64,000 bases of DNA, from NCBI GenBank assembly GCA_016215705.1, contig JACRIR010000051.1, forward strand, positions 7,771 to 71,770, given 5' to 3'. The position numbers and the translations under genes were made by a program. Below, piece after piece: positions 9,104-58,015 of this stretch (position 1 is its first letter; every line of letters starts with the position of its first letter). The notes beneath the pieces were generated by a model. The model ran no database searches. It was not told where the DNA came from and saw only the letters and a list, made by a program, of their open reading frames with translations. Source of the DNA: Candidatus Poribacteria bacterium. Its GTDB lineage: Bacteria; Abyssobacteria; SURF-5.

Positions 9104-9706
9104 ATGACTTTGGCAAATCGAGCAGTGTTCCTCGACCGCGACGGAACCATCAACGAAGAATGCGGCTACCTGAACCATCCGGACCGGCTGAGGCTGATCG
9201 AAGGAGCCCCCGAGGCTGTCGCGCTGCTTAATCGTCACGGATTCAAGACGATCGTGGTGTCGAATCAGTCCGGGGTCGCCCGGGGGTATTTCCCCGAAAA
9301 ACTCCTGGGAGCCCTTCACGACAAGATTCAGGCCCTTCTCAAGGCGCATGGCGCAGCCCTGGACGCGATATATTACTGCCCTCATCACTCCAGCGTCGGC
9401 GAGCCGCCTTACAGGCAGGATTGCGAATGCCGGAAACCGAAACTCGGAATGATTCACAGGGCTGAAATAGAATTTGCGGTCGATGCGCGACGCTCCTATA
9501 TGGTCGGCGATAAACTGAGCGACGTCGAGTTCGGAAAGCGCGCGGGCTGCAAGACTATTCTGGTTCTGACGGGCTATGGCAAGGGCGAATGGGAATACAA
9601 TCGGGAGAAATGCCCCGTGAAACCGGACTACGTTGCGGCGGATGTCCTCGGCGCCGCAAGGTGGATTGTCAATGACCTGAAAAACCGGGAACAGAGTCCA
9701 CGATGA
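9104..9706 (+). CDS. gmhB: D,D-heptose 1,7-bisphosphate phosphatase (HAD family)
   Basis: 200 aa with the HAD motif FLDRDGTIN and a Cys-rich zinc site (CPHH...CECRKP), typical of GmhB. Confidence 0.85.
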   Translation: MTLANRAVFLDRDGTINEECGYLNHPDRLRLIEGAPEAVALLNRHGFKTIVVSNQSGVARGYFPEKLLGALHDKIQALLKAHGAALDAIYYCPHHSSVGEPPYRQDCECRKPKLGMIHRAEIEFAVDARRSYMVGDKLSDVEFGKRAGCKTILVLTGYGKGEWEYNREKCPVKPDYVAADVLGAARWIVNDLKNREQSPR

Positions 9707-27035: not shown

Positions 27036-27659
27036 TTGCGAATGACGAGTGACCCCACCTTTGAACCTCTTGTCTCCGAAACGCGCGAGCGCATACTGCG
27101 AGCCGCGATGGAGCTCTTCCGCAAACACGGATTCAATAACACCTCCATAGCTCAGATTCTGCAGCACGCAAAGATCACCAAGGGCGGATTCTACTTCCAC
27201 TTCAAGAGCAAGGAAGAACTCGGATTCATAGTCCTCGAGCGCACCCGGGATTTCTGGATGGAGAATGTCATCGACGTAATCGCCCAGGAAGCCGGCGTCA
27301 GGCGCCGCATAAGCCGCATGGTTGAGATTATGACCGAGATGTATCGCGGCGACATCTTTCACGGTTGCGCGCTGCTTGCCGTGCTGACCGCCGAGATGAT
27401 GGAACATCCGACGGAATTCGCCGACCGCATAAGAAGCATAATAGCCGAATGGCAAAAGAGCATCATTGACATCCTTGAACAGGGCAAGACCGAAGGCATC
27501 TTCCGCAAGGATATGGATTCAAGCGCCTTGGCTCTGATTCTGATCGGATGCTGCCAGGGCACGACCATGATGGGACACCTTGACCCCGAAAACGTCAACT
27601 ACGACCTGCTTCTTCATGACCTCGAGAAATGGATTCTCGAGGGCTGCGCCCGACGCTGA
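27036..27659 (+). CDS. TetR/AcrR family transcriptional regulator
   Basis: 207 aa with the N-terminal HTH RILRAAMELFRKHGFNNTSIAQILQHAKITKGGFYFHF. Confidence 0.9.
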   Translation: MRMTSDPTFEPLVSETRERILRAAMELFRKHGFNNTSIAQILQHAKITKGGFYFHFKSKEELGFIVLERTRDFWMENVIDVIAQEAGVRRRISRMVEIMTEMYRGDIFHGCALLAVLTAEMMEHPTEFADRIRSIIAEWQKSIIDILEQGKTEGIFRKDMDSSALALILIGCCQGTTMMGHLDPENVNYDLLLHDLEKWILEGCARR

Positions 27660-27743: not shown

Positions 27744-27786
27744 TTGACAACGAATGTTCATGTCCTGTATAATTCATCTTGTGAAT
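27744..27786 (+). promoter_or_regulatory. sigma70-like promoter plus candidate MarR operator
   Basis: TTGACA (27744-27749), an 18-nt spacer, then TATAAT (27768-27773). The inverted repeat ATTCA-N5-TGAAT (27772-27786) overlaps the -10 element. Confidence 0.5.
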
Positions 27787-27834: not shown

Positions 27835-28284
27835 ATGATAACGCAAGACGCAGCCACAAGTTTTTGGAAAGCGTTCGACAAACTCATTCGTTCCTTCTCC
27901 TCGATGAACAACGTTTCCGGAATCATTGTCCTCGGCAAGCCGGATATCATTGCGCTTGAGGCTGTCTCCAGGAATGAGGGGCTCATTATGAGCGAGATGG
28001 CGCGGCTTCTGGAGATCAGGTTCAATACCGCAACGGGAATTGCTGACCGACTTGTTGAAAAGAAACTGTTAAAGCGCGAAGGAAAACATGGGGACAGGCG
28101 AGTAATTCGACTGTGTTTGACTGAAAAGGGCAGGAAAACCGTTACGGCTTATCAAAGGCATAGGGGAAAGTTTTTCAGGGAAATGATGGTCGCTCTTACG
28201 AAAAGTGAACAGGAAGCTTTTGTTTCTGTCCTCGTGAAAATCGCCGGCGTAATGGACAAGAAAAAAGGGGAAATGGCGAGGTGA
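27835..28284 (+). CDS. MarR family transcriptional regulator
   Basis: 149 aa winged HTH (MSEMARLLEIRFNTATGIADRLVEKKLLKREGKHGDRRVIRL). A 4-bp overlap with the downstream mutase gene indicates an operon. Confidence 0.85.
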   Translation: MITQDAATSFWKAFDKLIRSFSSMNNVSGIIVLGKPDIIALEAVSRNEGLIMSEMARLLEIRFNTATGIADRLVEKKLLKREGKHGDRRVIRLCLTEKGRKTVTAYQRHRGKFFREMMVALTKSEQEAFVSVLVKIAGVMDKKKGEMAR

Positions 28285-29957
28285 TGTCGATGTTCAGCGA
28301 AAAGTTTCTGGAAAGCCTCAAAGCGGAATACGGACGATGGGAGCAGAGTACTCTCAAGAAGATCCTTGATAAATATGGCATGACTTCGGATTCTATTCCC
28401 CGGCAGACATATACGCCGCTCGACATTGAGACGACCGACTTCTCGAATTGTGTCGGATTTCCGGGCGAGTTCCCGTTCACACGCGGAATCTACCCCACCA
28501 TGATAGTCGGAACAGGCATCGGAGGGCGGGCGTATTCCGGTTTCGGGAACCCGGAGGATACCCGCGACAGGCTCAGATTCTTGCTGTCGCAGGGACAGTT
28601 CGGCTTCAGCCTGGCCTTCGATCTGCCGACGCAGATAGGTCTCGATTCGGACCATCCGCTGGCGACCGGCGAGGTCGGCAGGGTAGGGGTGGCCCTCAGC
28701 TCACTGCAGGACATGGAGACTATTCTGTCGGCGTTCGACGGCGGCGCGCCTCTTGACAGAATTCGCTCCTCCTTTACGACCAACGCCCAGGCGGTTGTCG
28801 TCCTGTCGATGTACATCGCGATGGCGGAGAAACTGGGCATTCCCCTGAACCAGCTTACCGGCACGATTCAAAACGATATCTTGAAGGAATACATCGCGCG
28901 GGGCACATATATCTTCCCGCCAACACCCTCGATGCGTCTTACAGGGGACATCTTCGAGTTTTGCTCCAGGAATATGCCGCGGTTCAACATGATAAGCATT
29001 TGCGGGTATCACATACGCGAGGCGGGCGCTACCGCCTCGCAGGAATTGGCATTCATGTTGTGCAACGCCATCGCTTATTCGGAAGTGGCGCTCAAACGCG
29101 GACTCGGCCCGGACGACTTCCTCCCGAGATTCAGCTTCCTGTTCAGCAGCCACAGCAATTTCTTCGAGGAGGTTGCCAAATTCCGCGCTGCCCGCAGAAT
29201 GTGGGCAAAGATAGCGCGTGACCGGCTGGGCGCAAAGAAGACTGATTCGATGCGTTTCCGCGTTGCCTCCGGTTACGCGGGTTCCACGTTCACGGCGCAG
29301 AAACCTCTTAATAATATCGCGCGCGGCACGCTCGAATGTTTTGCGTCAATCATAGGCGGGAACATGGGGAGCGCCTCGGCGCCGTATGATGAAGCATTGG
29401 GATTGCCGACCGAAGAGGCCACCATAGTGGCGCTTGATACGCCTCGCATAATCCACTTCGAGGCGCGCGGCGCCGACGTGATAGACCCGCTCGGCGGCTC
29501 ATACTATGTCGAACATCTGACCGACGCCCTGGAAGCGCGCGCCACCGATCTCATCAACAAGGTCGACGCCCTGGGCGGAGCAGTCGCTGCAATTGAAAAG
29601 GGATTCATTCAGGCGGAGGTTGAAAGCAGTTCGTACAAGATGCAAAAGGAAATTGAGGAAGGGATGCGCCGGATTGTCGGAGTGAACGAGTTTGTAGGTG
29701 AGACGCCGCCATTGCATCCGATGGAATTGGCGTCAGACATCGAGGATCGCAGAATCCGTGCGCTCAGGCAGTTGCGTGCTGAACGCAACAACGCAGCGGT
29801 CGAGAAATGTTTGAACCGGGTTCGCGTCGCAGCCGAAGGAACAGAAAATCTTATTCCGTCTGTCATGGATGCGGTCAAGGCTATGGCCACCAACGGCGAG
29901 ATATGCGGCGTCCTAAGAGAAGTTTTCGGCGAAGCGCAACCGTTTACTTCGTACTAG
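28281..29957 (+). CDS. B12-dependent acyl-CoA mutase large (catalytic, CoA-binding) subunit, divergent methylmalonyl-CoA-mutase-like paralog lacking a fused B12 domain
   Basis: 558 aa. Substrate-barrel motifs [33 protein letters not shown] and [12 protein letters not shown] are conserved. GGRAYSGF replaces the canonical MCM motif RQYAGF. The MCM segment TQSLHTNS is replaced by NMGSASAPY. Confidence 0.85.
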   Translation: MMSMFSEKFLESLKAEYGRWEQSTLKKILDKYGMTSDSIPRQTYTPLDIETTDFSNCVGFPGEFPFTRGIYPTMIVGTGIGGRAYSGFGNPEDTRDRLRFLLSQGQFGFSLAFDLPTQIGLDSDHPLATGEVGRVGVALSSLQDMETILSAFDGGAPLDRIRSSFTTNAQAVVVLSMYIAMAEKLGIPLNQLTGTIQNDILKEYIARGTYIFPPTPSMRLTGDIFEFCSRNMPRFNMISICGYHIREAGATASQELAFMLCNAIAYSEVALKRGLGPDDFLPRFSFLFSSHSNFFEEVAKFRAARRMWAKIARDRLGAKKTDSMRFRVASGYAGSTFTAQKPLNNIARGTLECFASIIGGNMGSASAPYDEALGLPTEEATIVALDTPRIIHFEARGADVIDPLGGSYYVEHLTDALEARATDLINKVDALGGAVAAIEKGFIQAEVESSSYKMQKEIEEGMRRIVGVNEFVGETPPLHPMELASDIEDRRIRALRQLRAERNNAAVEKCLNRVRVAAEGTENLIPSVMDAVKAMATNGEICGVLREVFGEAQPFTSY

Positions 29958-30046: not shown

Positions 30047-30850
30047 ATGAACGACAACCACATGCTGCTTGAAAAAGACGGCTACGTCGCCACCATAACC
30101 ATCAATCGACCCGATCAGCGCAACGCCATGCTGTCAATCATGTGGAAATGGCTCGGCGAAACGATGGATAAGCTAAGCGAAGACAACGACGTCAGGTGTG
30201 TTATCATCCGTGGCGCGGGCGACAAGGCGTTTGCGTCGGGAGCTGACATCTCAGAATTTGAGGTGTGGACCAGCCAGGAGAAAGCGCGGGAATATGGCGG
30301 CCGCATCGAATACGCCCTCCAGAGCATCGAGAAGCACAGAAACCCGGTGATTGCGATGATTCAGGGCTATGCCCTTGGCGCGGGCTGCGAGCTCGCGGTC
30401 GCCTGCGACCTCCGGATTCTCGCCGACGGCTCAAAAATCGGCATCCCGTCGGCAAAACTCGGCGTAATGCTGAATTACGAGAATTATCATAGAGTTGTCG
30501 ACCTGGTAGGCATCTCGATTGCGCGAGAAATATTCTTCCTGGGCCATCCCCTTGATGCGCAGCGCGCGAAAGAAGTCGGATTGGCCAATTTCGTTGTGCC
30601 CAAACCGGAACTGCAAACGTTCACTTGCGAGATCGCACGCGAGATTTCGGAAAATGCTCCGCTATCGGTGAGGGGAAGCAAGCGTGTTCTGCACGCATGC
30701 GCCGTGCACGGAATGCTTGATCGCGACCGCGACGCCGATGCGCTCGCGCAGCTCGATGACTTGAGCGCAGCTTGCTTCTTGAGCGAGGACGTGAAGGAGG
30801 GCGTAAGCGCCTTCTTCGGCCGCCGCAAGGCCGATTTCAAAGGGGAATGA
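30047..30850 (+). CDS. enoyl-CoA hydratase/isomerase (crotonase) family protein
   Basis: 267 aa with crotonase oxyanion and active-site segments (RGAGDKAFASGADI; GYALGAGCELAVACD). Confidence 0.85.
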   Translation: MNDNHMLLEKDGYVATITINRPDQRNAMLSIMWKWLGETMDKLSEDNDVRCVIIRGAGDKAFASGADISEFEVWTSQEKAREYGGRIEYALQSIEKHRNPVIAMIQGYALGAGCELAVACDLRILADGSKIGIPSAKLGVMLNYENYHRVVDLVGISIAREIFFLGHPLDAQRAKEVGLANFVVPKPELQTFTCEIAREISENAPLSVRGSKRVLHACAVHGMLDRDRDADALAQLDDLSAACFLSEDVKEGVSAFFGRRKADFKGE

Positions 30851-30894
30851 ACCAGGTTCACGGTTTACAGCCTACAGTTTACGGTTGAATCGAG
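30847..30894. repeat. family E repeat copy
   Basis: tgaaccaggttcacggtttacagcctacagtttacggttgaatcgagg. Confidence 0.5.
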
Positions 30895-31019
30895 GAGAAG
30901 CTGACAACTTTACCTTATTCCCTCGAAAGCGGGAATCCACGTTCGTGATGTCTCAGCGCACAAATCTGGATTCCTGCTTTCGCGGGAATGACGGTGAGGG
31001 TGTGGTAGGGAGATTACCG

Positions 31020-32348
31020 ATGAACATGACACGTGAACTCTGTGACGCAATTGAAAGGACTACTTTCGAGCAGATTCCGACTGACGCCATTGCGGAAGCG
31101 AAGCTCTGCCTGCTCGACTGGCTGGGCGTAACGCTAGGCGGCGCCCATGAGCCGCTCACGAAGATTCTTATGGAGATTGGCGACCTCGTCGGGGGCGAGA
31201 AGCAGTCCAGCATTGTCGGCCATGCGCGCAAGACCTCGATTCTGAACGCGGCCTTGATTAACGGCTCCGCGTCGCATGCGCTCGATTTCGATGACGTACA
31301 CTTCCAGATGATGGGTCATCCGACCGTGCCGGTCATGCCCGCGCTACTCTCATTGGCCGAAGTTCGAAAGAGCAGCGGGCGTGATGTTCTCACTGCATTT
31401 TTGCTCGGATTCGAGGCGGAGTGCAGAATCGGATCCTCAGTCTTCCCGTTTCATTACCAGCAAGGCTGGCATGCGACCTCGACAATCGGACGCTTCGGAG
31501 CAGCGGCCGCATGTTCAAAGTTGCTCGGCCTCGACGCGGCGCGCATGAGTTTCGGCCTTGGCGTGGCCGGCACACAAGCGGCCGGCCTCAAGCAGGTCTT
31601 CGGTACAATGTCCAAGCCGTTCCACGCCGGAAAAGCCGCGATGGATGGGCTTCTTGCGGCTTTGCTCGCCGAAAAAGGCTTCACTTGCTCCGAGGATATC
31701 ATTGCAGGCGAGGGCGGTTTCTGCAAAGTGCTCTCGCCGGACGCGAATCCTGAATTGATCATGCAGGACTTTGGCAAGACATACGCCATCGGGAACGTTA
31801 TGTTCAAGCGGCATGCCTCTTGTTTTGAGACGCATCCGACCATCGACGCGGCCCTCGATATTCGCAGTAAGGTGCGCGCGGACGATATCGCGGAAGTGCG
31901 AGTCTCCGCGGTTCCGGTCGCTCTCGAGATCGCCGGAAAAACTGAACCTAGCACCGGTCTCGAAGGCAAGTTCAGCCTTGCCTATTGCGCTGCGCTTGCA
32001 CTCGTCGACGGCGAGACGGGTGAAGACCGTTTCTCGGATGAAAATGTTCTGAGCGATCAACTGGTCGCAATGCGCAAGAAGATAACAGTGACCCCTGACG
32101 AACAACTCGGCTTGACACAAGCGGAAATCACCGTGCGGATGCGCGACGGTCGCCAATTGAAGAGCAGCGCCGACACGCTCGAGTCCGGCTCAAACAAAGA
32201 AAAGCGAAAAGCCGACCTTGTTCGGAAGTTCCGCTCTTTCGCCGAACGGCTCCTTCCGCCAGGCAGGGCGGATGCCATAATTAGATTTGTCGAGAACATG
32301 GAAGCGCAGAAGAACGTGGCAAAACTCTTAGCCCTCTGCCGTCCATGA
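31020..32348 (+). CDS. MmgE/PrpD family protein (2-methylcitrate dehydratase / cis-aconitate decarboxylase superfamily)
   Basis: The ORF extends to 30885, but ATG 31020 has a GGGAG RBS 6 nt upstream, and the extension covers a repeat or hairpin region. PrpD-family motifs are present throughout (GSASHALDFDD, HPTVPV). Confidence 0.8.
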   Translation: MNMTRELCDAIERTTFEQIPTDAIAEAKLCLLDWLGVTLGGAHEPLTKILMEIGDLVGGEKQSSIVGHARKTSILNAALINGSASHALDFDDVHFQMMGHPTVPVMPALLSLAEVRKSSGRDVLTAFLLGFEAECRIGSSVFPFHYQQGWHATSTIGRFGAAAACSKLLGLDAARMSFGLGVAGTQAAGLKQVFGTMSKPFHAGKAAMDGLLAALLAEKGFTCSEDIIAGEGGFCKVLSPDANPELIMQDFGKTYAIGNVMFKRHASCFETHPTIDAALDIRSKVRADDIAEVRVSAVPVALEIAGKTEPSTGLEGKFSLAYCAALALVDGETGEDRFSDENVLSDQLVAMRKKITVTPDEQLGLTQAEITVRMRDGRQLKSSADTLESGSNKEKRKADLVRKFRSFAERLLPPGRADAIIRFVENMEAQKNVAKLLALCRP

Positions 32349-32460: not shown

Positions 32461-33654
32461 ATGCAGAAAATTCTCGAAGGCGTCAGGATACTCGACCTCT
32501 CACGCATGCTCGCGGGCCCATATGGCTCCATGCTTCTCGGAGACCTCGGCGCAGAAGTCATTAAAATCGAAGAACCCGGCAGCGGTGACCTCACCCGGAC
32601 AACTTCCGCTCAGGCCGCTCTTCGGGGCATCAGCGCATACTTTCTGAGCATCAATCGAAGCAAGAAGAGCGTTACGCTGAATATGAAGACCGAAAAAGGG
32701 CGCGCCATCTTCTACGAACTCGTCAAGAAGGCTGATGTTGTCTACGACAACTTCCGGCCGGATGCTCTCGAGAGGCTCGGATGCACATATGAGATTCTTT
32801 CAAAACACAACCCCGGAATTATTTGCTGTTCGGTATCGGCATTCGGACACGACGGTCCCTATCGCGACCTGCCCGCATACGATGTCATTCTTCAGGCAAT
32901 CGGCGGCACAATGGGCCTTACAGGACCCGAAGGCGGCGACCCGGTTCTGATGGGAGTGCCGATGGGCGACCTTGGCGGCGGCATTTTCGGGGCGCTCGCG
33001 ATATCAGCGGCGCTTTACAATCGTGAGAAAACCGGCTGCGGCCAGAAGCTGGATATCAGTCTGCTCGACAGCCAGATATCGTTGCTGGTCTACATGGCGC
33101 AAACTTACATAGCCAACGGACAGGTTCCTAAGCCCCGCGGCACAATGCACCCGCTGATCGCCCCTTTCCGTGCGTTCAAAACAAGGGACGGCCACATTGC
33201 GGTGGTCGCTTTCCAGGATAAATTCTTTGAGAGCTTTTGCCGGATAATCGAACGCGAAGACCTCCTGACCGATGAACGGTTTGACAACTTGATTAATCGC
33301 GCTTTGAACAAGACTGAGTTGTATGCTATATTGGATACGATTTTCCCGAGAAAAACGACCGCTGAGTGGCTTGCGCCGTTGCGTGAAGCTCAAATTCCCT
33401 CGGGTCCCGTGAACGACATCAAGGATGCCTTGAATGATATCCAGGTGCGACACAGAAAGATGGTTGTCGAGATTGACCACCCCGAAATCGGGCGCTACGA
33501 GGCTCTGGGGAATCCTATAAAATCGTCGGCGATGCACGATGGCGAATTCATGCCGCCGCCTGCGCTTGGCCAACATACGGACGAAGTGCTCGGCGCGCTG
33601 GCCGGTCTTTCGGCCGATGAGATCAAGTCTTTGCGCAATGAAGGCGTGATCTGA
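32461..33654 (+). CDS. CoA transferase family III (CaiB/BaiF family)
   Basis: 397 aa. The N-terminus ILEGVRILDLSRMLAGPYGSMLLGDLGAEVIKIE is the hallmark of family III CoA-transferases. Confidence 0.85.
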   Translation: MQKILEGVRILDLSRMLAGPYGSMLLGDLGAEVIKIEEPGSGDLTRTTSAQAALRGISAYFLSINRSKKSVTLNMKTEKGRAIFYELVKKADVVYDNFRPDALERLGCTYEILSKHNPGIICCSVSAFGHDGPYRDLPAYDVILQAIGGTMGLTGPEGGDPVLMGVPMGDLGGGIFGALAISAALYNREKTGCGQKLDISLLDSQISLLVYMAQTYIANGQVPKPRGTMHPLIAPFRAFKTRDGHIAVVAFQDKFFESFCRIIEREDLLTDERFDNLINRALNKTELYAILDTIFPRKTTAEWLAPLREAQIPSGPVNDIKDALNDIQVRHRKMVVEIDHPEIGRYEALGNPIKSSAMHDGEFMPPPALGQHTDEVLGALAGLSADEIKSLRNEGVI

Positions 33655-33753: not shown

Positions 33754-34170
33754 TTGGGAGGACATGAGGGTATGCCTGAAAAGAAAATACGAGTGTTGGT
33801 TGCCAAGCCCGGTCTTGACGGCCACGACCGCGGCGCAAAAGTCATTGCGCGCGCGCTCCGCGACGCCGGAATGGAAGTCATTTACACTGGTCTTCGTCAA
33901 ACCCCTGAGCAGATCGTTTCTGCGGCTTTGCAGGAGGACGTGGACGTGATAGGTCTGAGCGTCCTTTCGGGCGCTCATATGGGACTGACTCAGAAAATCA
34001 TAGCCAGGCTCAAAGAGCAAAATGCCGGCGACAAAATGGTGCTGGTGGGGGGAACCATCCTCGCAAAAGATATCCCTAAGTTGAAAGATATGGGTGTTGC
34101 CGAAGTCTTTCCGACGGGCAGTCGCCTCGAAGAACCGATCAAATTTATCAAAGAACGACTCGGAAACTGA
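33754..34170 (+). CDS. cobalamin B12-binding domain protein (acyl-CoA mutase small subunit)
   Basis: 138 aa. The DxHxxG motif is present in [22 protein letters not shown]. SxL and GG motifs are also present, giving the classic MCM C-terminal domain. Confidence 0.85.
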
Positions 34171-34567: not shown

Positions 34568-35644
34568 ATGCCTGAAATAAGAAAACTTGATATCGACACC
34601 CCCGCTCTTCTCATTGACCTCGACAGAATGGAACATAACATCAAGAAGATGGCAAGTTTCTTCGATATGCAGTTCTCCAACTTGAGGCCGCACACAAAGA
34701 CCCATAAATGTCCCGTCCTGGCGCACAAACAGCTTCAGGCAGGCGCTCAAGGGATAACGTGCGCAAAATTGGGCGAAGCAGAGGTAATGGCCGCCGCAGG
34801 CATACGGGATATCCTTATCGCCAACCAGATAGTGGGCCCCGACAAAATCGCGCGTCTGGCAAATCTCGCCCGACATTGCGACATCATGGTGGCCGTCGAA
34901 TCTCGCCACAATGTCGCAGACCTCTCCATGGCGGCGAGGCATGCGGGCTCCACTATTCGCATTCTCATCGAGGTCGATGTCGGAATGCACCGGTGCGGCG
35001 TGAAGAGCCCGGAAGAAGCGGTCTCGCTTGCTCAAAAGATTCTGGAAAGCCCGGGGCTGCAATTCGAGGGCATCATGGGTTACGAGGGCCACGCGGTAAT
35101 GATTCCGGAACTCGACGACCGGCGACAGGCCTGTCTCAAGTCGATGCAAGTCCTGATAGGCGCCAGAGATGCCCTGCTGAAGAGCGGAATCGAAGTGAAG
35201 ATTGTAAGCGCAGGCGGAACCGGAACGTACAACATCGCAGGTTCGTACCCGGGAGTAACGGAAATCCAGGCGGGCTCCTACATACTCATGGATGCAAAAT
35301 ATCGAAGCGTGCTGCAGGATTTTGAATCGGCCCTCACAATCCTTTCTACGGTCACGAGTCGGCCCGACAAGGAAACAGCGATCCTCGACGCGGGCATGAA
35401 GGCGATGACGTTTGAATTCGGGATGCCGGAGCTTGTCGGAGTCGCCGGCGCCGCCGTCTCTTTCCTCTCCGAGGAACACGGCCACCTGTATCTTGAGGAT
35501 GCGGACCCCCAGGTGGGTGAAAAAGTCGAGCTCATTCCCAGTCATTGCTGCACAACCATCAATCTCCATGACCGCTTTTACGCCGTTCGCGGAGATCGTC
35601 TGGAGGCCGTCTGGTCTGTTGCCGGCCGCGGCAAATTCGCGTAG
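34568..35644 (+). CDS. alanine racemase N-terminal domain protein, DSD1 family PLP-dependent enzyme (D-serine dehydratase / D-threonine aldolase / D-3-hydroxyaspartate dehydratase-like)
   Basis: 358 aa. PLP-lysine segment LRPHTKTHKCPVLAHKQ. Fold-type III barrel plus a C-terminal domain. Confidence 0.75.
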   Translation: MPEIRKLDIDTPALLIDLDRMEHNIKKMASFFDMQFSNLRPHTKTHKCPVLAHKQLQAGAQGITCAKLGEAEVMAAAGIRDILIANQIVGPDKIARLANLARHCDIMVAVESRHNVADLSMAARHAGSTIRILIEVDVGMHRCGVKSPEEAVSLAQKILESPGLQFEGIMGYEGHAVMIPELDDRRQACLKSMQVLIGARDALLKSGIEVKIVSAGGTGTYNIAGSYPGVTEIQAGSYILMDAKYRSVLQDFESALTILSTVTSRPDKETAILDAGMKAMTFEFGMPELVGVAGAAVSFLSEEHGHLYLEDADPQVGEKVELIPSHCCTTINLHDRFYAVRGDRLEAVWSVAGRGKFA

Positions 35645-35729
35645 GCCAGTTCCACACGTGTAGGAGATGCCAACTTGTGTCCTGGAGGCGGAAAAGGCAA
35701 GGTTATCTTGGTCTCAGCGTTTATGTCTG

Positions 35730-35758
35730 TTGACAAACATAGATATGTGTGGTATAAT
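35730..35758 (+). promoter_or_regulatory. consensus sigma70 promoter with no downstream protein-coding gene on its strand
   Basis: TTGACA (35730-35735), a 17-nt spacer, then TATAAT (35753-35758). Confidence 0.55.
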
Positions 35759-35764
35759 TCCATT

Positions 35765-35835
35765 GTTCCAATTTCCCAACCCCCATGCACGAAGAGGGGG
35801 AAGTGCGAAAGCCTTCCCCCTCTTATGCTTTAATG
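35765..35835 (+). ncRNA. candidate small RNA (promoter to intrinsic terminator), unknown family
   Basis: Predicted TSS about 35765. The GC-rich hairpin gaagagggggaag-tgcgaaagc-cttccccctctt (35791-35824) is followed by atgctttaat. It lies in the convergent gap between the DSD1-like gene and selB. Confidence 0.3.
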
Positions 35836-35942
35836 TCCTCAGCACAAAAACGCCGTTGAAAACCCCACGGTGCTTCCAGAGAAGAACGAACTCCTTTTCA
35901 CCGCAAAGCCGCAAGTGGTGCAAGGGAAAAGCAAGAGTGTTG

Positions 35943-37877
35943 CTATGAGTTCTTGCTCTTCAACACACGGTAGTCCCCGACTCTCGCCGTCAACCCAATC
36001 TTGTCAAAGTACTCAAGCAGCGGGACCGCATGCTTGCGGCTTACGCCAAGGACGGTCTTCAGGTCGCCAACGCCAAGCTTGTCGGCCTTTTGGAAATGCT
36101 CTTTGATTCTGCGTATCGCGGGCTCGAGGAAATCCTTGTGGTAGGCCATCGTGGGACTGATCTTTATGATCATCCCCTCCTCCAGCAGCAACGAAATCAT
36201 CTGCTTTGCGCTTTTGGAATCACCAATCTGTTCTTCAACCTGGCTGAATGTCGGCGGCGAGTAACCGGCATCTCGAAAGATTGATTCCATTCTGTGTCTT
36301 GCCGCTTTCTGGGCTTCGGTTATCTGAGCTTTTCTGCCTTTGAATCTAATCCCTTCGGCGGCAGCCTCGATCACATCAGATTGGATGAGTTCAATCATGA
36401 TTCTGTCAAAAATGTGCGCATCGATCTCGCCCAACCGGCTCCGCAATTCCTCCCTTGGCATGAACAGGCGGTGCGGCTGAGACGCAAAGAATCCTTTCAT
36501 CTCCTCAGTGGCGCGTTTTCTTATCTGCTCGAAGCGATCCCGAAAGACGATAAGCATGTCATCGCCGCCGGCGAACGATAGGATGGTTCCCTTCTTGATG
36601 TGCGCGTCCACCACCGCGCGCACCTTTTCTATTGGCTCCCCCACGCGTGAAGCAAGGGCGCGTAGCCTTTCGCCCGTATCCTTTTGGGCAAGGAACGCGA
36701 GAGCAACTTCTCCCGAGGTGGCTTTCTCAAGCTTCTTGAGACAATCTGACCTATCCGTCTCTTTTCGTCTCAATTTGGCCGGCCCCACGTCGATAACAAC
36801 CCCTCCGCCAATCGTGAATTCAGGCGATTCTCCCCTGAGCACAAAACGGTCGCCCCGAAACGCGCACAGCGCATGCGCTGGATGAATCTGCACGTAAGCC
36901 TCTTCGCCCGGGTTGAGCTTAAGCGTATCGATGAGATTCATGCGCGCAAGCCGCTGGCTTGTAGCGAGATAGAGCTTGACACTCGAGGTCCTTGGAATCG
37001 CTCGAGGCGCAGAAGCCAACAACTGAATCCTCGCGTCGAGAATGCTCGTTGCTTCTGCCGTACCCTGTCTCACAAGGGTATCGCCGCGCTCGATTTGCTG
37101 AACGGAAATATTGGCCAGGTTCATCGCAGCCCGCATCCCGGCGGAAATCCTCTCCTGCTTGACGCCATGGCTCTGCAATTGACGCGCTCGTGTCGATAAT
37201 CCGGAAGGGAGAACAACCACAGGCTCATCCTCGGAAAGATGGCCCGAGAACACGGTTCCCGTGACCACCGTTCCAAAACCCTTCATGGTGAAAACGCGAT
37301 CTATGGGGAATCGGAACAGCCCCTCTTCGTCCTTTTGCCGCTGTTCCTCCACGGCCTGCCTGATCAATTCCCTGATTCGATCAAGTCCTTCACCTGTCTT
37401 CGCCGACACTCTTTCAATGGGCGCCCCCTCGAGGAATGTGCCTTTCACAATCTCCTCGATTTCCGCCTCGACGATCGCCACCATTTCGCTGTCGGCCGCG
37501 TCGATCTTATTAATCGCTACGATTCCCCGAGGAATAGCAAGGAGTTTCATGATCTCGAGGTGCTCGCGCGTTTGTGGCATCACACTCTCCGTGGCGTCCA
37601 CCACGAGGATGACAATATCCATGCCTGCCGCCCCTGCAAGCATGTTCTTTACGAATTTTTCGTGTCCGGGAACGTCCACGAACGCAACGCGAGTGCCGTC
37701 AGGAAGATCGAAATGCGCAAAACCGAGATCTATTGTCATCCCGCGCTCTTGTTCCTCCTTGAGGCGGTCCGGATCAATGCCCGTGAGAGCTTTTACCAGC
37801 GCGGATTTTCCGTGATCTATGTGGCCGGCAGTGCCGACAATGAGGTGTTTCATTGGGAACCGTATCCCCTTCACCAA
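35943..37877 (-). CDS. selB: selenocysteine-specific translation elongation factor
   Basis: 644 aa. GTPase domain with G1 motif GHIDHGKS, followed by domains II to IV and C-terminal winged-helix (SECIS-binding) repeats. Confidence 0.9.
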
Positions 37878-37920
37878 AAGGAATGCTGATGCTCCCCCTG
37901 TTGAATTTGTCCAACAATCG

Positions 37921-37953
37921 TTGTAGGGGCACGGCGCGCCGTGCCCCTACAGG
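37921..37953. repeat. palindrome family C (TGTAGGGGC...GCCCCTACA), copy 1
   Basis: ttgtaggggcacggcgcgccgtgcccctacagg, immediately upstream of the selB start. Confidence 0.6.
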
Positions 37954-38022
37954 CGATACTGCCTCGAAATAGCAATTGCAGAGCAGTCTCTCCTAACTTT
38001 TTGTCAAAAGGCGGTTCTTCTT

Positions 38023-38082
38023 CCCCCCTTTGAAAAAGGACCATCTTTCTTCACCCCCCTTTGATAAAGGGGGAAGGGGGGA
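38023..38082. repeat. hairpin family B (CCCCCCTTTGAAAAAGGGGG), two tandem copies
   Basis: cccccctttgaaaaagg...cccccctttgataaagggggaagggggg. Confidence 0.6.
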
Positions 38083-38178
38083 TTTTACAGTCCGGGTGTG
38101 TGTGCCGCGTTTACCGGTGGAGCACTACCACACGTTCACATACGAAGCACTAAGTAGGTCGCTTCATAAATCCTGTAT

Positions 38179-38214
38179 CGTATTTTGTAGGGGCGACTCG
38201 GTGAGCCGCCCTCG
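38179..38214. repeat. repeat family C variant (CGTATTTTGTAGGGGCGACTCGG)
   Basis: cgtattttgtaggggcgactcggtgagccgccctcg. A reverse-complement copy lies at 60187-60218. Confidence 0.6.
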
Positions 38215-38257
38215 CTAAATCCAGGCGCCTACGTCACCGTATTTATGAAAACATGCG

Positions 38258-39667
38258 CTAAGCCCCGGCGGCAATCTCCCGAAACGCTGCCACTATCTCA
38301 GACAATTCATCCGCCTGCACCGTTCTGAAATCGAGGCAAAAAGAATCGTTTCGGATTATCCCTATGATGGGAGGCGAATTTCGCCTCAAGCGGCTCGCAA
38401 TCTGCTCGGGTGAGAGCTTCTCCGGCTTGATGATTAGCAACTTTGTGGGGAGCGTCTGCCCCGGACACGAACCGCCGCCAATCTGCGATTCTCCGTCAGC
38501 GATATCGGCGCGCAGGATCCTTCGCAACTGACTACCCATCTCATCAAGAACTCTTCCTGCCATCTTGCCGATATCATCCGGCGTGCGAGAGATTATTCCA
38601 AGCGTCGGTATCTCTTTTTCCGGCGCGCGCGATGATTGCAGAATCTGGAAAAGCACGCCGAGCGCAGAAAGCGTCATCTTGTCGACACGCAGGGCCCGCA
38701 TCAGAGGGTTCTTGCGAATTGCCCGCACGTATTCAGCCTTTCCCACGACTATGCCCGCCTGCGGGCCACCCAACAGCTTGTCGCCACTGAATGTTACGAT
38801 ATCGGCGCCGGTCTTGACGCTGGCCTGGGGCGTTGGCTCACCGCTGATTCCGAACTTCGTCATATCCACGATTGCGCCGCTGCCGAGGTCTTCCATCACG
38901 GGAACGCCGTGTTTTCGGCCGAGTTCAACCAACTCTGACAGTGGCGTCTGATTCGTGAATCCGACGATGCGGTAATTGCTCGGGTGAACTTTGAGCAGTA
39001 GAGCAGTTTCAGGCGAGAGCGCTCGCTCATAGTCATATATATATGTTCGGTTTGTGGCGCCTACCTCCACGAGTTTCGCGCCGCTCTTGGCCATTACCTC
39101 CGGTATCCGGAACGAGCCGCCTATTTCCACAAGCTCACCACGTGACACGATAACCTCGCGCCCCTTGGCAAATGTGTCCAGCGCAAGCATGACCGCTGCC
39201 GCATTGTTGTTTACGACGGTCGCAGCCTCGGCCCCCGTAACCGAGCAGATGACCGGCTCGATGACAGAATCGCGGTGGCCTCGCTCGCCTGTCGAAAGGT
39301 CAATCTCGAGGTTGCAGTAGCGAGCTGCCACGTCCGCCATTGCTGCGATAACCTTGGGCCCGACGAGAGAACGGCCCAAATTTGTATGAATCACCACCCC
39401 CGTGCCGTTTATCACTCGGCGCAGAGCAGGGGAGAGGCGAGCCGATGCTCTGCCCACCACTTCATCCTCGATGGCGCCCAACTCAAGGGGCGGTGAGTTC
39501 TTACGAGCTTTCTTTTGGCCGGACCGGATTTCCTCGAGCACCTCGCGAACGACCTCCGTCACAAACGCATCTGTCAGCCCCTGAAGGAGACCCATCACTT
39601 TGGGAGTCTGCTTCACCTTCTCCACGCTGGGAATGCGGCTCAGATTTGTCCGGGATTCTTGTGCCAT
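38258..39667 (-). CDS. selA: L-seryl-tRNA(Sec) selenium transferase
   Basis: PLP-lysine region FSGDKLLGGPQAGIVVGK and conserved SelA core. The ORF track extends to 39760, but the Met at 39667 gives the typical ~469 aa length. Confidence 0.88.
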   Translation of the reverse strand: MAQESRTNLSRIPSVEKVKQTPKVMGLLQGLTDAFVTEVVREVLEEIRSGQKKARKNSPPLELGAIEDEVVGRASARLSPALRRVINGTGVVIHTNLGRSLVGPKVIAAMADVAARYCNLEIDLSTGERGHRDSVIEPVICSVTGAEAATVVNNNAAAVMLALDTFAKGREVIVSRGELVEIGGSFRIPEVMAKSGAKLVEVGATNRTYIYDYERALSPETALLLKVHPSNYRIVGFTNQTPLSELVELGRKHGVPVMEDLGSGAIVDMTKFGISGEPTPQASVKTGADIVTFSGDKLLGGPQAGIVVGKAEYVRAIRKNPLMRALRVDKMTLSALGVLFQILQSSRAPEKEIPTLGIISRTPDDIGKMAGRVLDEMGSQLRRILRADIADGESQIGGGSCPGQTLPTKLLIIKPEKLSPEQIASRLRRNSPPIIGIIRNDSFCLDFRTVQADELSEIVAAFREIAAGA

Positions 39668-39906
39668 AAGTAGTTGTATCCAATTGTCAAAATCCCTGCA
39701 ATTCTTACACAATACGCAACCAATTGTCAACCGCCCCTTGAGGTTCGGTGCTTGCCGCATTCAGCGATGCCTGCCGGGCGCATATACGGGCGCATATAGG
39801 CGCAAATACTTGAACAGTTGCTCATTCTTGCTAACATCGGCGAAGCATGACATATTAGTTAAAGTAAGAAGCAACCAGACCAAAACTATGGAAAGGAGAG
39901 ACTACA

Positions 39907-40980: not shown

Positions 40981-42531
40981 ATGTCGACTTTCGAGCAGAT
41001 CGATAAACTTAAGAAACTCCAGGAGCAGGCGCTCATGGGGGGTGGTGAGGAACGCATCAAGGAGCAACATGAAAAGGGTAAACTCACTGCCCGCGAAAGA
41101 ATTGATATGCTCTTAGATAAGGGTTCTTTCACAGAGTTGGGCGCATTTGTTACACATAAATGCGCACACTTCGGAATGGAGAAAAGAAAATATCTCGGCG
41201 ACGGAATCGTTACCGGCTATGGCGCTATTGCCGGACGGCAGGTGTATGTCTTTGCGCATGATTTCACCGTCGTCGGAGGCACTCTCGGCCACGCATTTGC
41301 AGAAAAAACGTGCAGACTAATGGAATTGGCGATGCGCAACGGCGCACCCGTCATCGGCCTGAACGACTCCGGTGGAGCGCGCATCCAGGAAGGCGTCGAA
41401 AGCCTTGCCGGATATGCAGACATATTCTTGCGCAATACGCTGGCCTCGGGCGTCATCCCGCAAATATCGGTCATTCTGGGTCCGTGCGCGGGCGGCTCGG
41501 TGTATTCTCCCGCGCTGACGGATTTCATCTTCATGGTCGACAACACGAGTTACATGTTCATAACCGGTCCCGAAGTGATCAAAGCGACCACCTACGAGGA
41601 AGTCACCAAGGAAGACCTTGGGGGGTCGCATACCCATTCGACCCGGAGCGGTGTTTGCCATTTCGCGATGCCCGATGAGACCAGTTGCTTTGACGCCATA
41701 CGCGAGCTCTTGTCATACGTTCCTCAGAACAACATCGAGGAACCTCCGTTCGTGCCGACTGCCGATCCGCCTGACCGCGCGGACGAATCGTTGAACTCAA
41801 TCATTCCTGACAATCCAAAGGAATCATATGACATGTACAAAGTCATTCGCTCGGTTGCGGATGACGGCCGTTTCTTGGAAGTCCATGCCGGGTTCGCGCG
41901 CAACATAATCGTGGGTTTCGCTCGACTTGGAGGACGGTCCGTCGGCATTGTGGCAAATCAGCCGATGGCGCTGGCCGGCTGCCTCGACATAAATGCGTCC
42001 GTTAAAGCAGCCCGGTTCGTACGGTTCTGCGATGCGTTCAACATCCCGATAGTTACCTTCGAGGATGTGCCGGGGTTCCTGCCGGGCACAGCCCAGGAAT
42101 TCGGCGGGATAATCGTTCATGGCGCGAAACTCTTGTACGCTTACTGCGAAGCTACCGTGCCCCGTGTTACCGTTATCACCCGCAAGGCCTATGGCGGCGC
42201 ATACTGCGTGATGTCGTCTAAACATGTGCGGTGCGACATCAATTATGCATGGCCCTCAGCCGAGATCGCCGTAATGGGTCCTGACGGAGCCATCAATATC
42301 GTCTTTCGGAAAGAACTCGCCGAGGCAAAAGACCGCGAAGAGGCCCGCAAAAAGCTGCTCGAGGACTATAAGGAGAAGTTTGCGAGTCCGTACATCGCCG
42401 CCGAACTCGGATATGTGGACGAAGTAATCGAACCCGGGATGACGCGGGTGAAGCTAATAAGAGCGCTTGAGTCGCTCCGGAATAAACGCGATACAAATCC
42501 ACCCAAGAAACACGGGAATATTCCCCTGTGA
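40981..42531 (+). CDS. acyl-CoA carboxylase carboxyltransferase subunit (propionyl-CoA carboxylase beta / methylmalonyl-CoA decarboxylase alpha / transcarboxylase 12S family)
   Basis: 516 aa with both CT half-domains ([14 protein letters not shown]; [16 protein letters not shown]; [17 protein letters not shown]). Confidence 0.9.
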
Positions 42532-42593: not shown

Positions 42594-43082
42594 GTGAGGC
42601 CTTTCGTTGTGAAGAAACTGGAGTTGCTGGTCAACGGGAAATCGTATAATGTGGAAGTAATCCGGACCGGCGGCGAAGTCGCTCGTGTGATCGTAAATGG
42701 CTCGCCATACGACGTCGTCATCAAGGACCTGCCGGAAGGGCATTTCCCGCAGGTGAGGACCACGGCCGAGAAGGCTGCGCAAGCCGCTGCTGTCGGTTTT
42801 CCACCCGCGCAGATGAAACATGAGTTCGCGGCCGCCGAAGGCGTTACCGTCGTAAAGTCGCCTCTCCCCGGCCTCATCCTCGACGTCAAGACGGGCGTAG
42901 GAGACTCAGTAAATGCCGGTGACACACTTGTCGTCATCGAAACCATGAAAATGGAGAATAATGTCGTATCGCCTGTTTCGGGTGTGGTCAAAGAAATCAA
43001 AGTCTCGAAAGACCAAACCGTGAACGAAGGGGTTCCTCTCATAGTCATCGGTCCCCTTTCCCCCTTTATTGTGAACGACTGA
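42594..43082 (+). CDS. biotin carboxyl carrier / biotin-requiring subunit (MmdC/OadG-like N-terminus plus biotinyl domain)
   Basis: Biotinyl-lysine motif IETMKMEN within LVVIETMKMENNVVSPVSGVVKEIKV. Confidence 0.8.
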   Translation: MRPFVVKKLELLVNGKSYNVEVIRTGGEVARVIVNGSPYDVVIKDLPEGHFPQVRTTAEKAAQAAAVGFPPAQMKHEFAAAEGVTVVKSPLPGLILDVKTGVGDSVNAGDTLVVIETMKMENNVVSPVSGVVKEIKVSKDQTVNEGVPLIVIGPLSPFIVND

Positions 43083-43222: not shown

Positions 43223-44887
43223 ATGAACATGGAAGAGCTTGGAAAACTACACAAGCAGTGGGAAGAAAAAACTCTGGGCAAGGTTTTGAGCAAGTTCCCC
43301 GAGCGATCAAACAAGTTCCAAACCGACTCCGGCATCGAACTTCGCCGCGTGTACTCACCCCTCGATCTTGACGACGTCGACTACCAGAGGGAACTGGCCT
43401 TTCCGGGCGAGTATCCCTATACGCGCGGAATTCAGCCGACCATGTATCGCGGCCGCCTTTGGACAATGCGCCAATATGCCGGCTTTGCCAACGCGCGGGA
43501 ATCGAATCGTCGTTACCGCTTCCTGCTTGAGCACGGACAAACGGGCCTGAGCATCGCGTTCGATCTGCCCACTCAGATAGGCTACGATTCCGATCATCCC
43601 CTGGCCGATGGGGAAGTCGGCAAGGTCGGCGTCGTCATCGATTCTTTGAGAGACGTCGAAATCCTTTTCGACCAGATTCCTCTCGATAAGGTGACGACCT
43701 CGATGACAATCAATTCGACTGCCGCGATCTTGCTTGCCATGTATGTGGCGCTTGCGAAGAAACGGGGGACCCCGCTCGACAAACTCGGTGGCACGATACA
43801 GAACGATATCCTCAAGGAATACGTTGCTCGCGGGACACACAGGTTTCCGATAAATCCCTCGATGCGCCTAGTAACCGACACTTTTAAATACTGCACGAAG
43901 AATCTGCCCCGTTGGAACATGATCAGCATCAGCGGGTATCACATACGCGAGGCGGGCTCCACGGCAGTCCAGGAAGTAGCCTTCACCCTTGCGAATGCGA
44001 TTGCCTACGTGCAAGCCGCAGTTGACGCCGGCCTCGATGTCGACGACTTTGCCGGACGCCTTTCGTTCTTCTTCAATTCGCATAACAACTTTTTTGAAGA
44101 AATTGCGAAATTCCGGGCCGCGAGGCGACTGTGGGCTCGCATTGTGAGAGACCGTTTCCATGCGAAGAAACCCGGCTCGGAAATGCTTCGCTTTCATACG
44201 CAGACCGCCGGATGCACGCTCACCGTTCAGCAATATGAGAACAACGTCGTGCGCGTGGCTTTCCAGGCGTTGGCAGCCGTGCTGGGCGGAACGCAATCGC
44301 TTCATACCAACTCGAGGGATGAGGCTCTGTGCCTGCCGACCGAGGAATCCGTCCGGTTGGCGCTGCGCACCCAGCAGCTGATTGGTTACGAGAGCGGTGT
44401 CGCCGATGTCGTCGACCCGCTGGGCGGCTCCTACTTCATTGAGCGTCTTACATCCGAGATCGAAAAGGCCGCAGCCGACTACATTCAAAAGATCGACTCG
44501 ATGGGCGGTTCGATCTCTGCGATCAAAAACGCCTATCTGCAAAAGGAAATCCAGGATAGTTCATACAGGTATCAGCAAGCAATCGAGAGCGGCGAAAAAG
44601 TAATTGTGGGAGTCAATAAGTTCCAGACCGAAGAGCCGCCTCCGGAGAAACTGCTCGAGGTCGATCCGAAAACACAGGCCGAGCAAATCGAAGGGCTGAA
44701 AAAAGTGCGCGCCGAGCGAGACAACGCTTCCGCGCAAGCATCGCTCGAGCGCCTGCGGGAAGCCGCATCGGGCGACGTTAACCTCATGGAGCCCATAATC
44801 GAGTGCGTCGAGAGATATGTAACCCTTGGTGAGATATGCTCAACGCTGGCGCAGGTTTTTGGAGAAGCGGCCGAAACCAATCCGTAG
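43223..44887 (+). CDS. methylmalonyl-CoA mutase large subunit (catalytic domain only, canonical)
   Basis: 554 aa. The canonical MCM substrate residues are present (RQYAGF Tyr, VARGTH Arg, [16 protein letters not shown]). No fused B12 domain. Confidence 0.9.
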
Positions 44888-44942
44888 AAGGGCTTATTTC
44901 AGGAGAGCCTACTTTCCCCTTTTATCCATCAAAGGATACGCA

Positions 44943-45455
44943 ATGATACATAACTACGGCGACCGCAAACCCTCCATCTCTCCGACCGCCTTTCTCGCCG
45001 ACGGCGTCCAAATCATCGGCGCCGTCGAAATCCGCGACAACGCGAGCATCTGGTTCAACACGGTGCTTCGCGGCGACATCAACGACGTGCGTGTGGGCGC
45101 TTGCAGCAACATTCAGGATAATTCCACCCTTCACGTCGCGGACGAATGGCCGTGCATAGTTGGGGATTACGTGACCGTCGGGCATGGCGCCAATCTGCAT
45201 GGATGCGTCATCGAAAATGAGGTCGTTGTAGGAATGGGCGCCGTCATATTGAACGGCGCAGTGGTTGGATATCAGTCGGTCATCGGCGCAGGATCTGTCA
45301 TCCCGCCGAATACCAAAATTCCTCCTCGCAGCATGGTAATAGGTGTGCCTGCGAAAGTAACGAAACAACTTTCGGAAACTGAGGCGGCTGGCAACAAATA
45401 CTGGGCCGAGAAGTACGTGCGCGTGAGCCGCGCGTATCTCGGCGCTGCGGTCTAG
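44943..45455 (+). CDS. gamma-class carbonic anhydrase family protein (left-handed beta-helix, hexapeptide repeats)
   Basis: Start at MIHNYG. The ORF-track start at 44826 overlaps the mutase gene. Gamma-CA/PaaY-like motifs NASIWFNTVLRGD and HGANLHGC. Confidence 0.8.
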   Translation: MIHNYGDRKPSISPTAFLADGVQIIGAVEIRDNASIWFNTVLRGDINDVRVGACSNIQDNSTLHVADEWPCIVGDYVTVGHGANLHGCVIENEVVVGMGAVILNGAVVGYQSVIGAGSVIPPNTKIPPRSMVIGVPAKVTKQLSETEAAGNKYWAEKYVRVSRAYLGAAV

Positions 45456-58004: not shown

Positions 58005-58015
58005 GGAGTGCCGAC

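Follow-up and report, generated by a model that had tools for sequence, protein, structure and literature searches.

A 64,000-nucleotide stretch of a genome assigned to Candidatus Poribacteria (Abyssobacteria, SURF-5; GenBank assembly GCA_016215705.1, contig JACRIR010000051.1, positions 7,771 to 71,770), hereafter called the window, encodes two large subunits of the acyl-CoA mutase family. One of them keeps all signature residues of methylmalonyl-CoA mutase (MCM), and the other is divergent. Here, we asked what kind of enzyme the divergent copy is. We found that it belongs to a rare, conserved, and uncharacterized branch of the acyl-CoA mutase family. From its sequence and gene context, we predict a functional adenosylcobalamin (AdoCbl)-dependent two-subunit mutase rather than a second MCM, a prediction that we hold with as much confidence as doubt. 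The two genes are as follows.

28290-29957, plus strand: divergent acyl-CoA mutase large subunit; the open reading frame (ORF) opens at GTG 28281 (558 aa), with the probable start at ATG 28290 (555 aa)
43223-44887, plus strand: canonical split-type methylmalonyl-CoA mutase large subunit (554 aa), with all MCM signature residues kept

The start at ATG 28290 is likely because homologues are 555 residues long, a GAGGTG Shine-Dalgarno sequence lies 6 nt upstream, and the stop codon of the preceding MarR-family gene falls 5 nt before it. As a preliminary description of the locus had proposed, both genes encode large-subunit paralogs without a fused B12 domain. Both are full-length, and each matched PF01642 alone, across the whole domain. 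Their identity, judged there by eye to be 55–60%, was lower by BLASTP (49% over 551 aa). The divergent copy scored 590.9 bits against PF01642 (cut-off, 22.1; residues 41–550) and 600.3 bits against TIGR00641 (cut-off, 303.8). Against the NCBIfam equivalog NF006944 (cut-off, 876), a model built for fused enzymes, it reached 493.7 bits and the canonical split copy 649.1 bits. Its best match among solved structures was 2-hydroxyisobutyryl-CoA mutase (HCM; PDB 4R3U, 3e-132), with MCMs next.

We aligned the divergent copy to solved chains, using the numbering of 1REQ, which was verified on Y89, R207, Y243, and H244. Arg87, Tyr89, Gln197, Arg207, Tyr243, His244, Glu247, Arg326, Asp369, and Glu370 are kept; the carboxylate-anchoring pair Tyr89/Arg207 is intact, with Arg207 in ARGT/ARGTY, and His244 lies in GYH. 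The replacements in the first segments are Gln88→Ala, Ala90→Ser, His328→Ala, Gln330→Gly, and Thr331→Tyr, and those in the 361–367 segment are Gln361→Met, Ser362→Gly, Leu363→Ser, His364→Ala, Thr365→Ser, Asn366→Ala, and Ser367→Pro. The motifs previously quoted for the canonical copy, TQSLHTNS among them, were all found at 43223–44887, and the divergent copy has RFRVASGY and GGNMGSASAPY at the aligned positions, as described. The reading of GGRAYSGF in place of RQYAGF held only in its letters: R-A-Y-S-G-F aligns with R-Q-Y-A-G-F and Tyr89 is kept, as is Arg207, and the change to the tyrosine motif was overstated. Thus, the divergent copy does not carry the complete MCM signature, but it does carry Tyr89/Arg207 and His244.

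Four of the replaced residues, His328, Gln330, His364, and Asn366, are conserved across the characterized specificities and are Ala, Gly, Ala, and Ala, respectively, in the divergent copy. The FH(T/C)QT and QSLHTN stretches are kept in human MCM, bacterial MCM, ICM-type sequences (RMFAGF/AQKE), and HCM (HcmAB, 4R3U), which shares the two-subunit architecture with the divergent enzyme but differs from it in having FHCQT and QSLHTN; these stretches are therefore independent of substrate in the characterized enzymes. Nor does the divergent copy resemble ICM or HCM at the specificity-related motifs, having Tyr, Arg, and SLAFD where ICM-type sequences have RMFAGF and AQKE and HCM has RQIAGF and STDFD. 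ICM is marked by a non-polar residue at position 89 and Gln at position 207, and HCM by Ile and Asp at its specificity positions, the Asp lying in the S-x-D-F-D strand. With Tyr89 and SLAFD, the divergent copy instead matches MCM, and its specificity is therefore not of the HCM type.

Do the changed positions belong to the pocket? According to a molecular-dynamics paper on human MCM, Tyr110, His265, and Arg228 (89, 244, and 207 in the numbering used here) touch the substrate, Ala349–Thr353 (327–331) form a barrel strand, and residue 108 (87) neighbours His350 and Leu385 (328 and 363). With 328 and 363 next to residue 87 on the Tyr89 strand, the changed positions lie inside the barrel. The preliminary claim of altered substrate motifs therefore stands: the changed positions do not fall outside the substrate pocket, with 327–331 forming one of the beta-strands of the barrel.

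The retained residues also bear on the idea that the divergent copy has no catalytic role and forms a heterodimer with the canonical large subunit, as the MutA beta chain does in Propionibacterium MCM. Homology to MutA-type chains is detectable, and the window holds two paralogous large subunits for one B12 subunit. However, the divergent copy keeps its substrate-binding and catalytic residues, unlike MutA, its operon is separate and 13 kb from the canonical copy, and in relatives no canonical copy lies within 10 kb of the divergent gene. In addition, the gene is under strong purifying selection and its pocket motifs are invariant, as detailed below. We regard such a heterodimer as extremely improbable.

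We investigated how far the altered motifs are conserved. A search of 5.8 billion proteins found 8 orthologue clusters at 77–90% identity to the divergent copy (clade 1), whereas the next matches were at 57% or below. The replacement motifs were invariant in all 8 clusters, and the ratio of nonsynonymous to synonymous substitution rates (dN/dS) between orthologues was 0.03–0.07 for the mutase, with similar values for the B12 subunit, crotonase, and CoA-transferase and with dS near saturation. This invariance and the low dN/dS indicate that the motif changes are not chance drift. Clade 1 was found at 1 locus among approximately 185,000 species genomes. Its members come solely from Hydrogenedentota-type metagenome-assembled genomes (MAGs) of uncultured organisms, which carry the labels Abyssobacteria, Lindowbacteria, or Poribacteria; every member is annotated plainly as methylmalonyl-CoA mutase.

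Which partners does the divergent mutase have? In the window, a TetR gene and then a MarR gene come first, followed in order by genes for the mutase, a crotonase-fold protein, an MmgE/PrpD-family protein, a family III CoA-transferase, the B12 subunit, and a pyridoxal phosphate (PLP) enzyme resembling D-threonine aldolase. Besides the mutase gene itself, the features of this cluster are as follows.

27036-27659, plus strand: TetR-family regulator, upstream of the cluster in all relatives
27744-27773, plus strand: sigma-70-type promoter-like site (TTGACA-18-TATAAT, 12/12) upstream of MarR; candidate operon promoter, by consensus match alone
27835-28284, plus strand: MarR-family regulator, whose stop codon precedes the mutase ATG
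30047-30850, plus strand: crotonase-fold protein, candidate decarboxylase or isomerase
31020-32348, plus strand: MmgE/PrpD-family protein, epimerase type; the listed ORF opens at TTG 30885, and homologues start at ATG 31020
32461-33654, plus strand: family III CoA-transferase
33772-34170, plus strand: mutase small subunit, B12-binding; ORF from TTG 33754, Met at 33772
34568-35644, plus strand: D-threonine aldolase / D-3-hydroxyaspartate aldolase-family PLP enzyme

The 135-nt TTG extension of the PrpD ORF (30885–31019) is probably not translated. Among the relatives, locus L001 has the same cluster order as the window, and L002 adds a sirtuin and a second large subunit of a third type ahead of the B12 gene. 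L004 has matching genes up to the sirtuin, where its contig ends, and L093 has the sirtuin and no second mutase. The MarR gene is present in L001 and L002 and absent in L004 and L093. The outer flanks differ among the four loci, while the cluster order holds. The B12 gene lies inside the cluster in 4/4 complete clade-1 contexts (the window, L001, L002, and L093), and the PLP-enzyme gene follows it in all four. A Hydrogenedentota chromosome (L097) was considered as a cluster without the mutase and enoyl-CoA hydratase-type genes; it has a 500-N gap at that spot and is uninformative.

The sirtuin is a CobB-like NAD-dependent protein deacylase encoded between the CoA-transferase and B12 genes (L002:15337-16146, L004:12757-13554, L093:15140-15946, and L097:12615-13382), and neither the window nor L001 has it. 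A connection with lysine acylation by reactive dicarboxylyl-CoA intermediates is possible; the Sirt5-type YxxR motif was not found at the expected position in the relatives' cluster sirtuin.

The small subunit (33772–34170) matches PF02310 and TIGR00640 and has the motifs DGHDRG (an intact DxHxxG, His-on), SVLSG, and GG. Pfam and tblastn agreed with the preliminary description that it is the single mutase-type B12 subunit in the window (33754–34170 as an ORF) and that it belongs to the cluster of the divergent copy; tblastn found no second one in the window. A second PF02310 domain in the window sits in a B12-binding radical-SAM protein (9703–11202), not in a mutase subunit; this protein is encoded among lipopolysaccharide-core genes (heptosyltransferases, lipid A acyltransferase, and a PfkB/cytidylyltransferase fusion). 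That the B12 gene is constantly present in the divergent cluster speaks for the small subunit serving the divergent mutase. Co-divergence of the small subunit with the divergent large subunit was not seen: its identity to other small subunits is 59–67% whether these partner canonical or non-canonical mutases. Of 26 canonical split MCM genes that had 5 kb or more of flank, 8 had an adjacent B12 gene. With none in the other 18, a canonical copy lacking an adjacent small-subunit gene, as in the window, is not unusual. In the actinonin cluster as well, the small partner of the large subunit is encoded elsewhere (PMC5719088). It seems to us an even call, on the sequences, whether the large subunit pairs with the small subunit, whose gene lies four genes further downstream, to form an AdoCbl mutase of an uncharacterized specificity class that would act on a 2-substituted succinyl-CoA.

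Comparison with the split-type MCMs (the canonical copy and P. shermanii MutB, PDB 1REQ) summarizes what is shared and what is not. The fold and family, 49% identity to the canonical copy, and a separate His-on B12 subunit are common to both. By contrast, the divergent copy lacks His328, Gln330, Gln361, His364, and Asn366 and has GIGGRAYSGF, and its context has neither a carboxyltransferase nor a biotin carrier but genes for a CoA-transferase, a crotonase, and a PrpD-family protein. None of the methylmalonyl-CoA pathway neighbours (carboxyltransferase/biotin carrier, epimerase, or MeaB) lies beside the divergent copy, whereas the canonical copy has the following two genes upstream.

40981-42531, plus strand: carboxyltransferase, MmdA-like
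42594-43082, plus strand: biotin carrier

In the best explanation of the locus, to which we give an even chance as a whole, the 43223–44887 copy is the housekeeping MCM of the methylmalonyl-CoA pathway. Pfam scans of essentially all sizeable ORFs agreed with the earlier statement that the 64-kb window, as distinct from the rest of the genome, contains neither MeaB/ArgK (PF03308) nor a glyoxalase-type epimerase. Directly downstream of the canonical mutase is a gene for a gamma-carbonic-anhydrase-like hexapeptide-repeat protein (44826–45455), whose longest ORF overlaps the mutase by approximately 60 nt; the Logan gene call for it (L007) is shorter (170 aa), and a DUF374 gene comes next.

Clade 1 is not the only departure from the canonical type. 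At least 4 further non-canonical large-subunit clades were found, the second large subunit of L002 among them. Among the columns with 95% or higher invariance in the canonical set, the 5 non-canonical clades all change His328, Gln330, Thr331, Phe287, Thr259, Trp235, and residues 363–367, and Gln330→Gly occurs in every one of them. In a neighbour-joining tree, which has no bootstrap and is indicative only, the non-canonical clades formed one group that was sister to the canonical split MCMs, with clade 1 beside clades 2 and 3. Searching 1.84 billion representatives with a profile yielded 27,429 members of the family, among which clades 1–3 fall into one 50%-identity representative; by a crude motif test, the H-T-N signature was missing in 115 of the 150 best representatives. 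The superfamily is thus full of uncharacterized branches, and a divergent paralogue as such is less surprising.

The third-type large subunit of L002 (16185–17852 of a Ca. Abyssobacteria SURF_17 contig) lies directly upstream of the single B12 gene of the same cluster and is missing from the window and L001. It has SIASCH for SISGYH (Tyr243 to Cys), CFRFAAGVGG, and VQSMLVAAKDEA, and it is 44–50% identical to both window copies. Further large-subunit types occur in Chloroflexota/SAR202/Tepidiformaceae genomes (L014, L033, L035, L044, L050, L054, L060, L087; L016, L027; L048), which show GGVQS(L/M/I)ALSC, IGFTFANACAY, or GGVQSMAVAS at the changed motif.

In clade 3 (L088), the set of mutase, family III CoA-transferase, crotonase, and PrpD recurs, accompanied by TctABC transporters, Iso_dh, a flavocytochrome-c-type flavoprotein, a ferredoxin, and an HpcH/CitE-type lyase. 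The flavoprotein was considered as a tricarballylate dehydrogenase and rejected (TcuA model, 131.6 vs. a cut-off of 369). Compared with their counterparts in the window, the partners in L088 show 53%, 54%, and 44% identity, and the mutases 55%; these parallel identities indicate that the four genes have co-diverged as a module. In clades 2 and 4, the B12 gene is in the cluster, with carboxyltransferases alongside, which are another possible decarboxylase for a malonyl-type product.

These comparisons allow us to weigh whether AdoCbl chemistry has been lost, leaving a B12-independent TIM-barrel enzyme on a CoA ester (a lyase, an isomerase, or a binding protein), with the B12 subunit serving another mutase. 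The loss of His328, Gln330, His364, and Asn366, kept in characterized mutases of all specificities, fits such a loss, as do the position of the second large subunit of L002 directly upstream of the B12 gene and the clade-3 relatives without a B12 subunit gene within 10 kb. However, even canonical MCM commonly has its small-subunit gene unlinked, the B12 gene occurs in all complete clade-1 contexts, three of which have no second mutase in the cluster, and the clusters of clades 2 and 4 also hold it. The radical-handling Tyr89 and the ribose-binding Glu370 are kept as well. We therefore consider a B12-independent enzyme very unlikely and return to an AdoCbl mutase of a new specificity.

What might its substrate be? 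The PrpD-family protein is closest to IDS-epimerase and B. subtilis 'IRG1'. Aligned to 2HP3, it keeps H85, D88, H99, Y145, H150, K198, and K266 of IDS-epimerase, i.e., the full two-base epimerase set. This set has been described for the (S)-(R)-methylsuccinate isomerase, with Tyr145 (IDS-epimerase numbering) as the second base; that PrpD-family enzyme works on the free acid and supplies a stereoselective family III itaconate/methylsuccinate CoA-transferase, and the known PrpD-family substrates are all 2- or 3-substituted succinates (PMC12290011). In the Pseudomonas/Cupriavidus itaconate/methylsuccinate cluster (Ict, PrpD-family isomerase, methylsuccinyl-C4-CoA dehydrogenase, Ich, and Ccl; PMC12290011), as in the window, a family III dicarboxylate CoA-transferase adjoins an epimerase-type MmgE/PrpD protein with the same residue set. 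That cluster differs in its aerobic acyl-CoA dehydrogenase, whereas the window has a B12 mutase and a crotonase-fold protein and no dehydrogenase; the PrpD proteins of the two are approximately 35% identical.

The best matches of the CoA-transferase are SUGCT and glutarate, oxalate, and mesaconate CoA-transferases. The crotonase keeps the first catalytic Glu (GAGCE), and compared with solved hydratases (5Z7R and 7EUM), IPS replaces QPE, so that the second Glu is Ser. The IPS in this position indicates that the crotonase is not a canonical hydratase. Methylmalonyl-CoA decarboxylase is among its matches. Crotonase-fold decarboxylases of malonyl-type CoA esters exist.

Based on these partners, we propose a scheme in which the MmgE/PrpD-type enzyme would epimerize the free acid, the family III CoA-transferase would activate one stereoisomer, the mutase would move the thioester carbon to give a malonyl-type ester, and the crotonase-fold protein, which lacks the second hydratase Glu, would decarboxylate this ester. 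In the mutase, the free carboxylate would be held by Tyr89/Arg207, and the substituent would be housed in the pocket rebuilt at 328–331 and 361–368. The divergent mutase would then probably carry out the rearrangement of a substituted succinate within a pathway of anaerobic breakdown that has not been described. Methylsuccinate/methylsuccinyl-CoA is the leading candidate substrate by analogy, albeit unproven; it would be converted via ethylmalonyl- or dimethylmalonyl-CoA to butyryl- or isobutyryl-CoA. We tentatively propose, while thinking it more doubtful than probable, that the four-gene module (epimerase-type PrpD, family III CoA-transferase, Gly330-type B12 mutase, and single-Glu crotonase) mediates an anaerobic, oxygen- and dehydrogenase-independent degradation of methylsuccinate and related C5 branched dicarboxylates to (iso)butyryl-CoA, in which the mutase would represent a new specificity class with a rebuilt 5'-deoxyadenosine/substrate pocket. 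To our knowledge, no anaerobic route has been described for methylsuccinate and related C5 branched dicarboxylates (products of itaconate reduction). Methylsuccinate itself is formed in anoxic habitats through flavin-dependent itaconate reduction, and no itaconate-fermenting bacteria are known (PMC12290011).

The same partners can be read differently. The PrpD-family protein, the SUGCT/Ict-like CoA-transferase, and the crotonase resemble itaconate/C5-dicarboxylate metabolism, MCM is known to be inactivated by itaconyl-CoA (PDB 6oxc/6oxd), and the substrate-contact residues Tyr89, Arg207, and His244 are kept. The divergent copy could then be a second mutase isoenzyme for methylmalonyl-CoA/succinyl-CoA, with a deoxyadenosine pocket rebuilt to gain another property, e.g., resistance to suicide inactivators such as itaconyl-CoA that would arise in the neighbouring pathway. 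However, the canonical MCM 13 kb away would stay sensitive, the recurrence of the module in clade 3 with more pocket changes looks more like diversification of specificity, and the epimerase-type residue set of the PrpD-family protein implies a chiral (sp3) substituted succinate, not itaconate. We consider a resistant isoenzyme unlikely.

A mutase for bulkier substituted succinyl-CoAs would act, for example, on alkyl- or arylsuccinates from fumarate addition or on carboxymethylsuccinyl-CoA (tricarballylyl-CoA) from tricarboxylates. The changes of Gln330 to Gly, Asn366 to Ala, and His328 to Ala make for a larger pocket, TctABC tricarboxylate-type transporters occur in clade-3 clusters, and carboxyltransferases, expected for alkylsuccinate-type routes, occur beside clades 2 and 4. 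There is also a precedent in print, as a mutase forming pentylsuccinyl-CoA has been proposed (PMC5719088): in actinonin and matlystatin biosynthesis, ActD and MatB-MatQ are split-type mutases proposed for the interconversion of alkylmalonyl-CoA and 2-alkylsuccinyl-CoA. These differ from the window's enzyme in being biosynthetic, from actinomycetes, and linked to CCR and an epimerase. On the other hand, no glycyl-radical fumarate-adding enzyme was found in the window or the clade-1 loci, and the CoA-transferase is nearest to enzymes for short dicarboxylates. In our judgement, such bulkier substrates are improbable, and methylsuccinate remains the favoured candidate.

Two further systems resemble the proposed methylsuccinate route. 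The E. coli Sbm (ScpA)-YgfG (ScpB)-YgfH (ScpC) system has the same logic as that proposed here: a CoA-transferase, a B12 mutase converting a succinyl to a malonyl ester, and a crotonase-fold decarboxylase. It leads from succinate to propionate; Sbm itself is a fused MCM of the canonical kind, accompanied by a MeaB-type protein (ArgK/YgfD), YgfH belongs to the family I transferases, and the operon has no PrpD-family gene. The proposed scheme also parallels the carboxyltransferase-linked clusters of clades 2 and 4. Ethylmalonyl-CoA mutase (Ecm/MeaA), from the ethylmalonyl-CoA pathway, would share its reaction, ethylmalonyl-CoA to and from methylsuccinyl-CoA, with the divergent enzyme if the leading substrate is right, and its substrate is likewise carboxylated. 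Ecm is a fused single-chain enzyme with an assimilatory role in aerobes and phototrophs. Two matches from Streptomyces plasmids (H2 and H3) were considered as Ecm and rejected, as both are canonical MCM.

Several observations weigh against the methylsuccinate scheme or the mutase assignment on which it is built. The substrate is derived from gene context alone. The PrpD-family protein is approximately 35% identical to the probable methylsuccinate isomerases and is equally near to IDS-epimerase and to B. subtilis 'IRG1', a protein of unknown function; the crotonase is overall nearer to hydratases than to methylmalonyl-CoA decarboxylase. The PLP enzyme has no evident role in a CoA-ester pathway and is left over by the scheme. 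Gln330 and Asn366 are 5'-deoxyadenosine contacts in MCM, and their loss could mean altered cofactor handling, not substrate room. An AlphaFold2 model built on a 19-sequence alignment had a mean predicted local distance difference test score of 68, with values below 50 in segments 34–81 and 327–403, and is too poor for pocket geometry. Finally, no mutase-type B12 subunit gene was found within 10 kb of the clade-3 loci (L005 and L088), which are from Thermodesulfobacteriota-type MAGs.

The window has other features beyond the two mutase loci. No cobalamin riboswitch or other RNA element was found in it. Immediately downstream of the divergent cluster, selB and selA (selenocysteine elongation factor and synthase) lie at 35943–39760 on the minus strand, and ARAGORN and Rfam found neither a tRNA-Sec nor any further tRNA in the window. 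Another perfect match to the sigma-70 consensus (35730–35758; TTGACA-17-TATAAT, with an upstream TG) is located between the PLP-enzyme gene and selB, within a 93-codon ORF (35667–35948) that has no family match. In addition, two adjacent HGD-D genes (2-hydroxyacyl-CoA dehydratase/benzoyl-CoA reductase-like; 56712–59137) follow a short-chain dehydrogenase gene (55889–56617). Their ORFs as listed overlap by approximately 160 nt. L089 and L090 have a comparable HGD-D pair, together with an activator, next to their clade-2 mutase.

New acyl-CoA mutase specificities (ICM, ECM, HCM, and PCM) have each opened new metabolism and given a tool for branched building blocks. Clade 1 drops residues that all characterized mutases keep, yet it is under strong purifying selection beside a B12 subunit, which makes it a natural experiment in the rebuilding of a radical pocket. 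Annotations as 'methylmalonyl-CoA mutase' in MAGs conceal many distinct enzymes. If methylsuccinate-type acids are indeed degraded without oxygen by this module, the finding would fill a recognized gap, as no fermentative route is known (PMC12290011).

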